A DNA stretch of 64,000 bases, taken from the NCBI GenBank assembly GCA_043827405.1, contig JBDRPD010000053.1, positions 96,221-160,220 on the forward strand, given 5' to 3'. Below the pieces are notes generated by a model, which saw nothing but the letters and a program-made list of their open reading frames with translations, ran no database searches and was not told the DNA's origin. The number at the start of each line of letters is the position of its first letter. The stretch's first letter is position 1. Origin of the DNA: Elusimicrobiota bacterium. Lineage in GTDB: Bacteria; Elusimicrobiota; Elusimicrobia; UBA1565. This document shows positions 7,301 through 28,422 of this stretch, in pieces. The translations under genes were made by a program, and so were the position numbers.

Positions 7301-8327
7301 GGCCAATCCGCCCGGCCTTGTCGCCGCGCCGTTCGCCAGCGTGACCTCGTCGATCACGGTGCGCTGGACGCCGCTGCCCACATCCCCCTCTTCGGCGGCC
7401 TGCCAGGGCTATCAGGTGGAGGCCTCCACCTCGCCCACGTTTTATCCGATCGCCACCGCCAACCGCACCGCCGATGCGGCCGCGAGCTCGCTGGGAGTGG
7501 AGGGCCTGCTGTTTCAGACGACGTATTACCTGCGCGTCGGCGCGGTCAACCTCAACGGCGTCCCCACCTTCACCAACTTGGGCTCCAGCGTAACCGTGAT
7601 AGCGATACTCTCCAGCAGCACGCTCAACGGGAGCGAGCTGACGCTGTCCATCCTGCCGTCGGTACTGCAGCTCCAATACGTCGAGGTGAATATCCCGCCC
7701 GGCACGCTGCCGGACGGGGTGAGCGTCACCGTCAACGCGAGCGTGCCTTTTGATTTCGACTCATCGGCGGTCAAGCAGGTAAACCTGACCCCGCTGGGCG
7801 CCGGCGTCGCCATCGATATCGACGCGCAGGGAAATCAGCCGCTGGGTCCGGTGGCGATCCGTATGGACTACGATCCCGCCTTCCTGCCGCCCGGCGTCAG
7901 CAAGCACCAGCTGGTCATCGCGCACCTGCGCGACGGCTACTGGGACGTGCTGGAAACGGAAAACGACACCGCCGGCAATGTCCTGCGGGCGCAGACCCGG
8001 CACTTCTCGCTGTTCGCGCCGTTCTATGTCGCCGCGGGCACGGCGCTGGATAATGTGCAGATCTTCCCGATCCCCTGGATGCCGGGCTCCGGAGACGCCA
8101 ATTACGACGCGCCCAAGCTGAGCATCATGAATCTCCCCGCGGGAGGAAGCGTTCAGCTCTATTCCATAATCGGCGAATCGCTCGGCACCTGGGACGCGAG
8201 CGCCGCCGGCATGGTCTACTGGGACGGAAAATCCAAGCGCGGCATGGAAGCCGGCTCCGGGACCTACCTGGTCGTCATCTCCGGGGCGGGCGCGCGCCGG
8301 GTCGAGCGCGTGGTGGTTATCCGATGA
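4317..8327 (+). CDS. Secreted subtilisin-like serine protease (S8 family) with multiple fibronectin-III-like repeats and a T9SS-type C-terminal sorting domain
   Basis: The catalytic triad motifs are present: VIGFVDTGID (Asp), HGSHVAGIAAG (His) and GTSMAAPVVAG (Ser). A signal peptide begins at the ATG at 4317 (MAKSVAAGRGLLFCLLAGALLLC); the track start at 4233 is a GTG extension. Repeated roughly 90-aa Ser/Thr-rich modules follow (SISWTWGAVTNATSYNIYYA...). The C-terminus (VQLYSIIGESLGTWDASAAGMVYWDGKSKRGMEAGSGTYLVVISGAGARRVERVVVIR) matches the type-A Por/T9SS C-terminal domain, which is FlgD-Ig-like. Confidence 0.8.
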   Translation: MAKSVAAGRGLLFCLLAGALLLCGLPAELFAQHGKLSPRLRTMRRQAAEGRPVTGFGVAADAGTADPIVSLLLRLRPGATREAVVARYPGSHFGVLNGRILTARLRASLLDAIDTDPDVDYAESPARYEPALEIAKSSTTSGSVYLGILDPSSVDFGANKGQGVVIGFVDTGIDWDHYDFRDDVNVLQSRILSIWDQTIASHGGGPNPAGYAYGAEYTQTQINNEIDGLPAGVLQTLDTNGHGSHVAGIAAGDGSDSDGSPAAGTYSGIAPQADIIMVKTSFIPSDILDGVNYIVGKAAAAGKRAVVNLSIQGQSGAHDGTLSFEQGINTVAASTPVVIAMGNYHDKSDHALYTFAPSGIHSFTASRILAASTLEFEFWAATGDAYDLTITDGINTPVSVSNNQDKTSQAMGTASLDIYNGTNSHPGGDKQILITITGTISQSNFTFSFTRVSNGGTGKLHGWNIYTDYANFTSDVDLTSTLTSPSVIANGIGVGSYCSKQTWYDGTNTQQTDACTLGEISSFSGHGPTRDGRQKPDIAAPGHRLASTLSTDSSATSAYTAQDNRHYLRRGTSMAAPVVAGAIAVRIQQNSTLTAAQIKSNLQTDTHTDSMTGASLPDGTWGYGKLKVLACGNTVDSAPSAAVPVTLGASSISWTWGAVTNATSYNIYYATDTGTLIANVASPAYTFTSLAANTDYRLEIRGQNICGEGTGGVSLTTATLTVPVSGSGTFAQEITRVTVGYSKLSGQNEGYLLHASTAADFTGTIFSSSTPNSDLGTLLIEGLSGFTTYYFRIGTLNPQGASVFSTLGSTRTDTTLLAPGTSTFSNISESALRANWTRNGNPSGLQYFAYLSTAADFSGTLLTEQTSGLYADFSSLSANATYYFQVRPATGPFGAASSTATHALAPGAVTPAFTGVYLSSVTAYWTDGGNPSGTWMLVESSTEAGFGTLIDSSSTQNTSRLLTGVWTNTTVYVRVSALNRHGIPTSYLTLSTATMANPPGLVAAPFASVTSSITVRWTPLPTSPSSAACQGYQVEASTSPTFYPIATANRTADAAASSLGVEGLLFQTTYYLRVGAVNLNGVPTFTNLGSSVTVIAILSSSTLNGSELTLSILPSVLQLQYVEVNIPPGTLPDGVSVTVNASVPFDFDSSAVKQVNLTPLGAGVAIDIDAQGNQPLGPVAIRMDYDPAFLPPGVSKHQLVIAHLRDGYWDVLETENDTAGNVLRAQTRHFSLFAPFYVAAGTALDNVQIFPIPWMPGSGDANYDAPKLSIMNLPAGGSVQLYSIIGESLGTWDASAAGMVYWDGKSKRGMEAGSGTYLVVISGAGARRVERVVVIR

Positions 8328-9691: not shown

Positions 9692-9914
9692 AGGATTACC
9701 TTGCAGACAGTGTACTCCGGGACGGGTTTTTCACTATGAAGCGAAGGGGCAGGCAGATTCGGGTATTGGCTCCAGAACGGCCTATTCCTAAACTCTCACT
9801 AATGTGAAATGGAAGTTCACAGCGGGGAGCGGCTTCCGCATGATTTTTGCGCTCTGCGGACGCTATTGTTAGGGCGCTCAGTCTGGAACTTAACTTGCTC
9901 CTCATTCGTATATA

Positions 9915-10454
9915 TTGGGAGTGGCGTCCTCAAAAGTCCCTATAGTCACACCTTCGCTATATTTTATCCGGGGACAGCAGGTGATCCTGGACTCGGATCT
10001 GGCGGTGTTGTTCGGTGTCTCGACGAAACGGCTTAACGAACAAATCCGGCGCAACCGAGATCGCTTCCCTGTTGATTTCGCATTTCGCCTAAATTCGACC
10101 GAATCCGAATTTTTGAGGTCGCAAATTGCGACCTCAAAAAAAGGACGCGGAGGCCGTCGATATTTGCCTTTCGTGCTGACTGAACACGGAGTTGTAATGG
10201 CGGCGAACGTGTTGAACTCAGTTCGGGCAGTCGCCATGAGTGTTGAAGTCGTAAGGGTTTTTGTCCGGTTTCGCAAAGCACTTCATTCCCGAGGCTCTCT
10301 CGCGAAGAAGCTTGAACAGCTCGAACAGGCAGTAAAAACGCGTTTAGACAAGAACGACACGGAAATCGAAGAATTATTCCAGGCCGTTGAATCGCTCATA
10401 AACATTAATGTCGATAGTCCTGGTCCAAATAGAAAAATAGGATTTGTTCCATGA
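9915..10454 (+). CDS. ORF6N domain protein (KilA-N-like DNA-binding; phage antirepressor-related family)
   Basis: FIRGQQVILDSDLAVLFGVSTKRLNEQIRRNRDRFPVDFAFRL...LRSQIATSKKGRGGRRYLPFVLTEHGVVMAANVLNS matches the ORF6N family consensus. The C-terminal half is coiled-coil-like. The start is non-ATG (TTG at 9915 or GTG at 9921). Confidence 0.7.
   Translation: MGVASSKVPIVTPSLYFIRGQQVILDSDLAVLFGVSTKRLNEQIRRNRDRFPVDFAFRLNSTESEFLRSQIATSKKGRGGRRYLPFVLTEHGVVMAANVLNSVRAVAMSVEVVRVFVRFRKALHSRGSLAKKLEQLEQAVKTRLDKNDTEIEELFQAVESLININVDSPGPNRKIGFVP
10110..10140. repeat. 31-nt perfect palindrome TTTTTGAGGTCGCAAATTGCGACCTCAAAAA inside the ORF6N CDS
   Basis: Read directly from the sequence. It encodes the conserved LRSQIATSK motif. 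Both strands have the T-run upstream and the A-run downstream of the stem, so it is not a canonical intrinsic terminator in either orientation. Confidence 0.6.
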
Positions 10455-22238: not shown

Positions 22239-25080
<2,842 letters not shown>

Positions 25081-25084
<4 letters not shown>

Positions 25085-25116
25085 CTTTCTCTGACATTTC
25101 CTGACACCCCCTGACA
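25081..25116 (+). promoter_or_regulatory. Four direct CTGACA repeats phased at exactly 10 bp (CTGACtttctCTGACAtttcCTGACAccccCTGACA), about 70-105 nt upstream of the receiver-domain gene
   Basis: Read directly from the sequence. The first repeat includes the korB stop codon. A CATAAT -10-like hexamer follows at about 25150. Confidence 0.45.
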
Positions 25117-25185
25117 TGTACGGTATTGCCCCCCCGCATCCGGCGCCGCATAATATCGTACGGACGATTCCTCCCCCCTTTGACC

Positions 25186-25614
25186 ATGAACGCCGACTAC
25201 GACATGTTCCGGGCCTCGCGCCCCAAGAAAGTGCTGATCGTCGACGACGATAAGGATCTCCTCGAGGTGTATCAGGACGCGCTGCGCCGGCTGGATTTCG
25301 CCGTGGAGATATGCGCCGACGGCTACGCGGCGCTGCGGCGCATGGAGGAAACGCTGTTCGACGTCGTAGTGCTGGATTTGATGATGCCCAACTGCACGGG
25401 CTTCGAAGTCCTGCTGCAGCTGCAGCGCAAGGAGGGGCCCAAGCCGGCGGTGATCGTCATCACCGGCGCGCACAAAGACCCGGATACCGTCGAACGCATT
25501 CGCCGGGAGCCCGTAGTTTTTGACTTCCTCTTCAAGCCCTGCCGGCTGATGGTATTGGCGGATACGATACGCCGGGCCGTTCCGGCCCAGCTGCCGGGCT
25601 GTCCTACTTCTTAG
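25186..25614 (+). CDS. Stand-alone response-regulator receiver domain protein (CheY-like)
   Basis: KKVLIVDDDKDLLEVYQDALRRLDFAVEICADGYAAL...FDVVVLDLMMPNCTGFEVL carries the phospho-acceptor Asp context. There is no output domain. An ATG start. Confidence 0.75.
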   Translation: MNADYDMFRASRPKKVLIVDDDKDLLEVYQDALRRLDFAVEICADGYAALRRMEETLFDVVVLDLMMPNCTGFEVLLQLQRKEGPKPAVIVITGAHKDPDTVERIRREPVVFDFLFKPCRLMVLADTIRRAVPAQLPGCPTS

Positions 25615-26820: not shown

Positions 26821-27093
26821 GCTCTTCCCCCTCTAAATCCTATACGCTGGCGCAGGCCGGCGGATATGGGACCTGCTGATATTATAGCGCCTCACATACG
26901 CCATATGCCGCCGGGACTTCCTTCGCGCGCTAAAAAAATCTAAAATACAGCCGCTAGGAAAGTCCTGCGGCGCATGCAGGACCCCTGGGCCAGCTTTAGC
27001 CGGTTCCGACAGACCCCATCGGCGCTCTTGCCGAACTTCCGGGGTCCCGGTGGTAGGCGCCCTCACTACATCATCTGTACAGAGGAGGATATT

Positions 27094-28422
27094 ATGGCTG
27101 AGGCCAAGAAGATTATCATCATTGGAGCCGCGGGACGGGATTTCCACAATTTCAACGTCCATTTCCGCAACAACCCCGAATACGAGGTGGTGGCGTTTAC
27201 CGCCTTCCAGATCCCCGGCATTGCGGGACGAACTTATCCCCCGGAGCTTTCCGGAGAGCGCTACCCCGAGGGTATCCCGATTCACGACGAGAGCGAGCTC
27301 GCCGACCTCATCCGGAAACATAAGGTCGAGGCCTGCATATTCTCCTACAGCGACGTCTCGCACAACGACGTCATGCACCGCGCCTCGCTGGTGACCTCCA
27401 CCGGCGCCGACTTCGTCATCCTCGACGCGAGCAAGACCATGATCAAGTCCAACAAGCCCGTCATTTCCGTCTGCGCCGTACGCACGGGCTGCGGCAAGAG
27501 CCAGACCTCGCGCGCGGTCGCCCAGCTGCTGCGCGCCAAAGGCAAGAAGGTCGTCCTGGTGCGCCATCCCATGCCGTACGGCGACCTGAGCGCCCAGCGC
27601 TGCCAGCGCTTCGCTTCGGTCGAGGACATGGACAAGGCCGATTGCACCTTCGAGGAGCGCGAGGAGTACGAGGCGCATACCCAGCTCGGCCTCGTGGTCT
27701 ATGCGGGCGTGGATTATGAGGAGATTCTGCGCTCGGCGGAAAAAGAGGCGGACATCATCCTGTGGGACGGCGGCAACAACGATACCCCCTTCTTCAAGCC
27801 CGACCTGAGCATCGTGCTGGTCGATCCGCACCGGGCGGGCCATGAGGTCCTCTACCATCCGGGAGAGACCAACCTGCGGATGGCGGACGTCATCCTCGTC
27901 AACAAGGTCGGCACCGCGAAGGTAAAAGACATCGCGACGGTCGAAGCGAATGCCAGAAAAGCCAACCCCAACGCCCTGATCATCCGCGCCGAGTCGACGG
28001 TCACCGCCAAGGACCCCGACGCCATCAAGGACAAGAGGGTTCTGGTGATCGAGGACGGACCGACGCTGACCCACGGCGAGATGACCTTCGGCGCCGGACA
28101 TGTGGCGGCGCGCAAGCACGGCGCGGCGGAGATCGTGGACCCGCGGCCGTACGCGGTCGGCTCGATCAAGAAGACCTTCGAGAAATACACCCACCTGACC
28201 GACATCCTGCCGGCCATGGGCTACGGCGACACGCAGACCAGAGAGCTGCAGGAGACGATCGACAATACTCCGTGCGACGTGGTTCTTGTCGGCACGCCCT
28301 TCGATATCGGCCGCATCATCAAGAGCGACCGGCCGATGATCCGCGTGACCTACGAAATGGACGCCACCGGCAGAAATGCGCTCGGCGGCATTATCGACGA
28401 GTTCCTGACCAAGCACAGCTAA
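27094..28422 (+). CDS. P-loop NTPase of the cyclic 2,3-diphosphoglycerate-synthetase-like (CPGS-like) family, function unknown
   Basis: The ATG at 27094 has a perfect AGGAGG Shine-Dalgarno 7 nt upstream; the track start at 26974 is an extension. A Walker-A motif RTGCGKSQTS is present, together with an N-terminal Rossmann-like segment (IIIIGAAGRDFHNF). It is co-directional with, and 21 nt upstream of, carbamate kinase. Confidence 0.5.
   Translation: MAEAKKIIIIGAAGRDFHNFNVHFRNNPEYEVVAFTAFQIPGIAGRTYPPELSGERYPEGIPIHDESELADLIRKHKVEACIFSYSDVSHNDVMHRASLVTSTGADFVILDASKTMIKSNKPVISVCAVRTGCGKSQTSRAVAQLLRAKGKKVVLVRHPMPYGDLSAQRCQRFASVEDMDKADCTFEEREEYEAHTQLGLVVYAGVDYEEILRSAEKEADIILWDGGNNDTPFFKPDLSIVLVDPHRAGHEVLYHPGETNLRMADVILVNKVGTAKVKDIATVEANARKANPNALIIRAESTVTAKDPDAIKDKRVLVIEDGPTLTHGEMTFGAGHVAARKHGAAEIVDPRPYAVGSIKKTFEKYTHLTDILPAMGYGDTQTRELQETIDNTPCDVVLVGTPFDIGRIIKSDRPMIRVTYEMDATGRNALGGIIDEFLTKHS

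Follow-up and report, generated by a model that had tools for sequence, protein, structure and literature searches.

The closest described systems are binding sites of response regulators of the OmpR/PhoB family. In Escherichia coli, the OmpR sites of ompF and ompC (F1 to F3 and C1 to C3) consist of contiguous 10-bp half-sites with an xxxACA core and a T-rich remainder, on which OmpR monomers bind head-to-tail, each dimer covering two half-sites and several dimers being lined up, at about −100 to −40 and directly upstream of a weak −35 element. The tor boxes of E. coli torCAD are four direct decamer repeats (CTGTTCATAT) bound by TorR, an OmpR-family regulator, and the half-site of the E. coli pho box is CTGTCAT. 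In vivo sites of ArcA, which also belongs to the OmpR/PhoB family, contain 2 to 5 direct repeats about one helical turn apart (PMC3798270), and the direct repeats of Mycobacterium tuberculosis PhoP are head-to-tail 7-bp repeats with a 4-bp spacer, bound by a winged-helix dimer (PMC4832192). For Elusimicrobiota, the literature searched yielded no characterized regulator binding site.

Here we describe an array of four CTGACA-type hexamers in a 64,000-nucleotide stretch of Elusimicrobiota DNA; this whole stretch, as analyzed, is referred to as the window. Comparable with the 10-bp half-sites of ompF and ompC, the array is built of 10-bp units, four in number, and ends 9 nt from a predicted −35-like element, but its hexamer is CTGACA rather than GTTACA-like. 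With the tor boxes it shares the copy number of four and a decamer that begins with CTG, and the TorR model lies near the candidate regulator subgroup discussed below; the decamer sequence differs, however, the tor boxes are not all contiguous, and the target of TorR is a respiratory operon whereas that of the window array is presumably a receiver-only gene. ArcA sites similarly hold multiple direct repeats about a helical turn apart, but their center-to-center distance is 11 bp as opposed to 10 bp, their motif is different, and ArcA mostly represses through promoter-overlapping sites, unlike what we propose for the window. The pho-box half-site resembles CTGACA, yet PhoB and PhoP sites have an 11-bp period and usually two units that replace the −35 element, while the window has four units upstream of its −35-like element. 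A PhoB pho box was rejected as an identification on two counts, the window having a CTGACA hexamer instead of the CTGTCAT heptamer and a 10-bp instead of an 11-bp period.

The array and its surroundings

The features of the locus are as follows (L004 is the contig with the closest orthologous receiver gene; L113 and L211 are regulator loci of other bacteria, described below).

24080 to 25084, plus strand: korB, 2-oxoglutarate:ferredoxin oxidoreductase beta subunit; overlaps the array by its stop codon alone and lies outside the regulatory unit
25081 to 25120, plus strand: the whole array, four 10-bp units of a hexamer and a 4-nt spacer (CTGACT-ttct, CTGACA-tttc, CTGACA-cccc, CTGACA-tgta)
25081 to 25086, plus strand: hexamer 1, CTGACT, degenerate at position 6; holds the korB stop codon TGA (25082 to 25084)
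25091 to 25096, plus strand: hexamer 2, CTGACA; with its spacer it makes CTGACATTTC, identical to units in L211 and L113
25101 to 25106, plus strand: hexamer 3, CTGACA
25111 to 25116, plus strand: hexamer 4, CTGACA, promoter-proximal, 9 nt from the −35-like element
25126 to 25131, plus strand: −35-like hexamer TTGCCC, from the promoter scan; L004 has TTGTTT at the same aligned position and in the same register
25143 to 25154, plus strand: conserved GCGCCGCA block running into the −10-like CATAAT (25149 to 25154); L004 has an identical GCGCCGCA-A-TAT, equally far from its array
25186 to 25614, plus strand: orphan single-domain (CheY-like) receiver, 142 aa, the presumed target; Pfam Response_reg only (E = 2.6e-23)

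A preliminary description of this DNA had reported four CTGACA-type repeats at exact 10-bp phasing that start in the korB stop codon, and this layout holds, the first hexamer being CTGACT. The half-sites are all direct and head-to-tail, the spacers between them (TTCT, TTTC, and CCCC) are all different, and the register is not continued by a fifth hexamer on either side. The distance from the array to the receiver start is 69 nt. The repeats are real and non-random. With up to one mismatch, CTGACA-N4-CTGACA has three matches in the 64-kb window, all within the array, compared with 0.08 expected from shuffles, and none of 100 shuffles reached three; with two mismatches allowed, no extra site appeared, the array being unique in the window. 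The lone hexamer CTGACA is not over-represented there (8 found versus 16 expected), and Tandem Repeats Finder returned the array as a repeat of period 10 in 3.7 copies.

The preliminary description had also taken the downstream gene for a stand-alone receiver, in agreement with its single Pfam domain. The encoded protein keeps the acidic pocket, the phospho-acceptor Asp64, Thr93, and Lys117, and is identical to a protein of an Elusimicrobiota metagenome-assembled genome at NCBI. On the other side of the array, korB encodes a TPP-binding beta subunit (TPP_enzyme_C) and comes after the gene of the alpha subunit (POR_N/POR); it is a metabolic enzyme gene and not the plasmid partitioning gene of that name. 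Succinyl-CoA synthetase genes lie opposite these alpha and beta oxidoreductase genes, and the neighbors of the array are TCA-cycle, cytochrome c, and amino-acid metabolism genes. Pfam searches of 28 window proteins gave metabolic and housekeeping functions and neither a helix-turn-helix regulator nor any other DNA-binding protein. When the 64-kb window was searched by phmmer with an OmpR-type regulator, a histidine kinase, and a receiver, only the receiver itself was matched; no other receiver, kinase, or Trans_reg_C gene is present in the window.

Farther downstream, positions 26974 to 28422 (plus strand) encode a 482-aa protein with no Pfam match. Two genes on the same strand come next, one carbamate-kinase-like and one for a class-III aminotransferase; farther on, the other strand encodes an ornithine/aspartate carbamoyltransferase.

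The promoter scan paired TTGCCC with CATAAT, already pointed out earlier as a −10-like element, at a 17-nt spacing, with a gap of 9 nt between the array and this pair. The 900-nt region scanned contains no other sigma-70-like site (0.1 expected), and from this predicted promoter we infer a transcription start near 25160. No intrinsic terminator was predicted between korB and the receiver gene. The hexamer GTACGG occurs twice, at 25118 to 25123 and 25158 to 25163.

Two further observations concern promoter-like sequences. The CTGACA units were considered as stacked −35 hexamers, a reading that was dropped on finding no −10-like element 16 to 18 nt after any window hexamer. Elsewhere in the window, TGGAACTTAACTTGCT at 9884 to 9899 (plus strand) agrees with the sigma-54 −24/−12 consensus with one mismatch, the best such match in the window, and sits just upstream of an open reading frame starting at 9915.

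Orthologous receiver loci

A protein search returned only four relatives of the receiver with an identity of at least 58%. P0002, the closest at 66%, is encoded on two near-identical short metagenome contigs, L004 and L005, in which the upstream neighbor is a divergent, unrelated gene and korB is absent upstream. L004 contains an array of the same kind at 149 to 188 (CTGACG-agct, CTGACA-ttat, CTGACA-tcgt, CTGACA-tccg), again with an exact 10-bp period. Between the window and this one independent orthologous locus, on which array conservation rests, 23 of 24 hexamer positions are identical compared with 5 of 12 spacer positions (Fisher p = 6e-4). The degenerate hexamer is the first one in both, as it is likewise in the regulator-linked arrays described below. 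The two sequences align gap-free from the array through TTG and GCGCCGCA-A-TAT and then diverge by an 11-bp indel in the leader. With proteins that are 66% identical, both loci retain four copies and an unchanged distance to the promoter-like elements. Only 9 of the 40 nt upstream of the array match; the similarity starts exactly at the array.

This comparison shows selection on the hexamers and none on the spacers, and also that the array, the promoter-like region, and the receiver gene constitute one conserved unit from which korB is excluded. It indicates that the array is a selected, presumably protein-binding site belonging to the receiver gene. With selected hexamers at a fixed spacing to the promoter-like region of the receiver gene, the array behaves like the regulated-promoter element proposed earlier. 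The accompanying proposal that it links korAB to a phosphorelay finds no support: in L004, array and receiver gene follow a divergent unrelated gene and the similarity begins at the array. Since the array is kept behind a different, divergent gene in L004, its overlap with the korB stop codon is incidental gene packing.

Absence from homologous loci, which the preliminary description had named as a point against function, was found in part: the array is present in L004 and L005 at 66% identity and is missing from the two homologs with 58% identity (L002 and L003). In L002, the receiver gene is inside an operon, with a 51-nt gap behind the preceding gene. A metagenome scan with the receiver alignment found the L004 contig again, no further orthologs, and 79 generic receiver loci without a CTGAC array.

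Other elements of the region fared differently. The GTACGG direct repeat, which the preliminary description had listed, does exist in two copies, but neither these nor the local inverted repeats of the window are present in L004; we rejected both as functional parts, and they are probably due to chance. Phased A/T tracts forming an intrinsic bend were rejected as well, the T-rich window spacers not being kept in L004.

On the minus strand of L004, at 103 to 148 and 3 nt beyond the array, a near-consensus promoter (TTGACA-17-TACATA) faces the divergent gene, so the array there sits between two back-to-back promoters. The leaders of three receiver orthologs (window 25165 to 25185, L004 229 to 242, and L002 about 7955 to 7975) have no Shine-Dalgarno motif and instead carry a C-rich TCCTCC-type sequence, in the same sense as the 16S anti-Shine-Dalgarno sequence. 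Among the other called genes of the window, a Shine-Dalgarno-like motif is found in about 40%, while the C-rich motif is found in only 3 of 46.

CTGACA arrays in other genomes

A scan of public genomes, in which each species was represented once, for CTGACA repeated three times with a 10-bp period gave at least 120 matches in many phyla; by our own estimate, about 17 would be expected in random sequence of the scanned size. The pattern is common across bacteria, and therefore the motif alone does not identify the binder. Among the matches listed, most are plain 10-mer tandem repeats in unrelated contexts (spacers are identical in 53 of 120), and none of those listed for three CTGACA units is an Elusimicrobiota record. 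CTGACA arrays of 10-bp period without two-component genes were seen in phage late regions by DUF1492/sigma-r4-like genes, at HTH/DUF3489 genes, and upstream of a uvrB-like gene.

Several of these settings can be described individually. Three Clostridia genomes share CTGACATTCACTGACATTTACTGACA (L056, minus strand, 1582 to 1607 in reverse-complement coordinates; L058, 134 to 159; L063, 4655 to 4680) at the 3′ end of a DUF1492/sigma-70-region-4-like gene. The translated neighboring open reading frames in L063 resemble phage packaging genes (putative), and CTGACATTCACTGACATTTACTGACA may be a late-promoter or packaging-related site that is unrelated to the Elusimicrobiota element. In two Acidobacteria (L042, 2164 to 2189, and the homologous site on the minus strand of L025), a small HTH gene encoded on the other strand has a start codon (ATGTCAG) that overlaps with a three-unit CTGACA array of variable spacers. 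The array also lies about 50 nt upstream of a DUF3489 gene, a setting that resembles a mobile element. Dehalococcoidia possess several TTTCCTGACA-type arrays per genome (L027 and L078 from one genome, L065, and L045 and L114 from one genome). The flanks of these arrays are conserved, as is a GTCAAATTCGGAGG-like sequence located about 80 to 100 nt downstream; this suggests a multi-copy promoter module or regulon. In L082 (minus strand, about 4292 in reverse-complement coordinates), a CTGAC array directly follows a sequence (TTCAAGTCCCTCCTTCCGCA) resembling a tRNA 3′ terminus; such places are typical insertion points of integrative elements.

Among the loci found by motif, one from Nitrospirota (L026) and two from Holophagaceae (L086 and L113) have related regulators with REC and Trans_reg_C domains beside the array. 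Further loci of this regulator subgroup were fetched by protein similarity and not by motif, giving seven non-redundant loci. Six of the seven carry, in about 53 kb, eight arrays in which CT(G/T)ACA hexamers are repeated three or four times with a 10-bp period; at the same stringency, 309 kb of generic receiver loci served as a control and contained one match. Thus hexamer, period, and copy number (three or four) recur beside operons of one OmpR-family subgroup in other phyla. The arrays linked to this subgroup are located as follows.

L026: 2596 to 2621
L206: 2819 to 2844
L207: 2884 to 2909
L086: 1438 to 1477 and 2343 to 2382
L113: 464 to 503 and 1058 to 1097
L209: 6763 to 6802 and 7682 to 7721
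L211: 3787 to 3826 and 4381 to 4420
L212: 6988 to 7027
L213: 4771 to 4810

In three Nitrospirota genomes, the three hexamers are invariant and the spacers differ, and the arrays of Holophagaceae, “Betaproteobacteria,” and Geobacter have four units of which the outer ones are degenerate (e.g., CTAACA-cttc-CTGACA-attc-CTGACA-attc-CTGACA). These arrays stand directly behind a kinase or regulator gene, with the following gene downstream of them. Four units are present in the window, L004, Holophagaceae, L211, and Geobacter arrays, and three in the Nitrospirota arrays and L213; some units of the regulator-linked arrays are identical to the CTGACATTTC of the window. The Nitrospirota and L004 arrays end 3 to 10 nt from a good −35 element (TTGACG-17-TAATAT and TTGACA-17-TACATA, respectively), the gap in the window being 9 nt.

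BasR, DrrD, MtrA, and PhoP are the PDB profile matches of the regulator subgroup, and its nearest NCBIfam models are OmpR, RpaB, and TorR, with scores far below the cut-off of every curated named regulator. Two of three members score best against the OmpR model, at 113 to 123 bits where the cut-off is 331. Judged by these profiles, the subgroup clearly belongs to the OmpR/PhoB family and is not an OmpR equivalog. Most of its members have a 7TMR-DISM histidine kinase as their partner. The best 120 homologs of the subgroup include no named member from Elusimicrobiota.

In L113 and L211, an array is directly upstream of a 131-aa receiver-only gene. The window receiver is about 31% identical to these two receiver-only proteins and is not their ortholog. 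The 131-aa protein is a paralog of the receiver domain of the regulator (L113, 529 to 924, minus strand; L211, 3959 to 4354, plus strand), and its gene is placed between the kinase gene and the second array, flanked by arrays to the left and right. At the corresponding place, L086 and L209 have a second regulator of full length instead of the receiver-only gene of L113 and L211.

The window array thus shares with the arrays linked to 7TMR-DISM and OmpR-type genes the CT(G/T)ACA consensus, the 10-bp period, three to four units with degenerate outer ones, T/C-rich spacers, an exact CTGACATTTC unit, and a position about 10 nt from a −35 or, in the window, a predicted −35-like element. It differs in having no regulator/kinase operon nearby and in its orientation with respect to the presumed target. 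In the Holophagaceae, the beta/delta-proteobacterial-annotated, and the Geobacter loci, the TGTCAG strand faces a co-oriented presumed target whose start codon is 101 to 165 nt away, whereas in the window it is the CTGACA strand that points toward the receiver gene, 69 nt away. The Nitrospirota arrays are between divergent genes, and their target is ambiguous. From the gene neighborhoods, the CT(G/T)ACA arrays and the OmpR-family subgroup of Nitrospirota, Holophagaceae, Geobacter, and proteobacteria-annotated metagenome-assembled genomes look like an undescribed pairing of regulator and motif: in the literature searched, no paper ties CTGACA/TGTCAG direct repeats or 7TMR-DISM systems to a defined operator, and neither the CTGACA motif nor the regulator subgroup is described.

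Interpretation of the array

An OmpR/PhoB-type site fits the array best, given hexamers arranged head-to-tail in four units of 10-bp period that lie about a helical turn before the −35-like element. On balance, we lean toward an operator bound by two tandem dimers of an OmpR/PhoB-type regulator that is encoded outside the window and controls the receiver promoter. The four head-to-tail half-sites, each a CTGACA hexamer with a 4-nt spacer, would accommodate two tandem dimers, and the binder would be a phosphorylated winged-helix response regulator of the OmpR/PhoB family. At about −80 to −41 relative to the presumed start near 25160, the array has the geometry of an upstream activator site that would recruit RNA polymerase to a weak promoter (TTGCCC-17-CATAAT). 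Binding would then lead to transcription of the orphan receiver gene, probably by activation rather than repression. The induced receiver-only protein might compete for phosphoryl groups and act as a feedback device or phosphate sink, an idea suggested by the recurrence of receiver-only genes behind such arrays.

The operator could instead serve another protein that reads direct repeats, such as a ribbon-helix-helix, a different winged-helix, or an uncharacterized protein, which we regard as rather unlikely. The hexamer-specific conservation shows selection and does not name the binder, the window offers no candidate regulator, and CTGACA arrays of 10-bp period also occur in contexts without two-component genes, all of which would suit such a protein. 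However, one OmpR-family subgroup is the sole recurrent and statistically enriched gene association that was found, and the period, the four-unit layout, and the position by the −35 element all match the OmpR family.

Improbable, in our view, is an action of the array on korAB, be it as a roadblock or insulator at the korB stop codon that limits readthrough or as a CUGACA RNA element in the korAB 3′ untranslated region. The start of the array in that stop codon and the lack of a predicted intrinsic terminator before the receiver gene are consistent with such a role, and regulator-linked arrays likewise begin at or within a few nucleotides of the stop codon of the upstream gene. Nevertheless, the array is conserved in L004 although no co-directional gene lies upstream there, and arrays are found in both orientations relative to flanking genes, which fits recognition of DNA and not of RNA. 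The RNA element was rejected outright: the single Rfam match (16.4 bits, E = 0.97, the gathering score being 100) is not credible, and the predicted RNA fold is no better than that of shuffled sequences (z = 0.42).

A neutral 10-bp tandem repeat without function, generated by replication slippage, would resemble the perfect 10-mer repeats that make up most of the public CTGACA-N4 arrays among the matches listed, many of them with identical spacers. The window array is very improbable as a member of that class, its spacers differing both within the array and from those of the ortholog while the hexamers, the copy number, and the promoter distance are kept.

The preliminary description had allowed for an OmpR/PhoB-type or an NtrC-type activator array, of which the former is favored by the direct hexamers, the 10-bp period, and the OmpR-subgroup loci. 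An upstream activator sequence for an NtrC-type enhancer-binding protein at a sigma-54 promoter has very little in its favor. The best NCBIfam similarities of the receiver do include NtrC-class receivers, although this is generic receiver similarity. No −24/−12 element (TGGCAC-N5-TTGCW, up to 3 mismatches) was found on the plus strand of 25081 to 25186, and the promoter predicted here is of a sigma-70-like type. Inverted repeats are the usual form of NtrC-type sites, whereas the repeats of the array are direct and the inverted repeats of the region are not conserved. Recombinase or transposase sites (integrase arm-type sites or a mobile-element end) are hardly credible either, for although arm-type sites are phased direct repeats, the array-plus-receiver unit has different genomic contexts in the window and L004, and the unrelated L082 array follows a tRNA-like 3′ end, there is no integrase, transposase, or phage gene near the window array and no matching inverted array or terminal repeat.

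Returning to the OmpR/PhoB-type operator, it is tempting to extend this reading across phyla. The array may mark a regulon of an OmpR-type subgroup with 7TMR-DISM partners that reads CTGACA at a 10-bp period; its recurrent output would be an array-controlled receiver-only protein, a built-in phosphate-sink or feedback module, split from the kinase/regulator operon in Elusimicrobiota. We offer this extension tentatively, as possible rather than probable.

The array itself is real and under selection; as a cis-regulatory element it is of a well-known type and calls for no new mechanism. It provides a concrete cis-element and promoter model for an Elusimicrobiota gene. In addition, an OmpR-family subgroup with members in Acidobacteriota, Nitrospirota, and genomes annotated as Geobacter or proteobacteria gains a candidate motif for DNA recognition, namely three or four CTGACA units with a 10-bp period. 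Should this motif be confirmed, the regulons of 7TMR-DISM systems would be predictable from sequence, and the repeated occurrence of receiver-only genes behind arrays would exemplify transcriptional feedback within two-component signaling.
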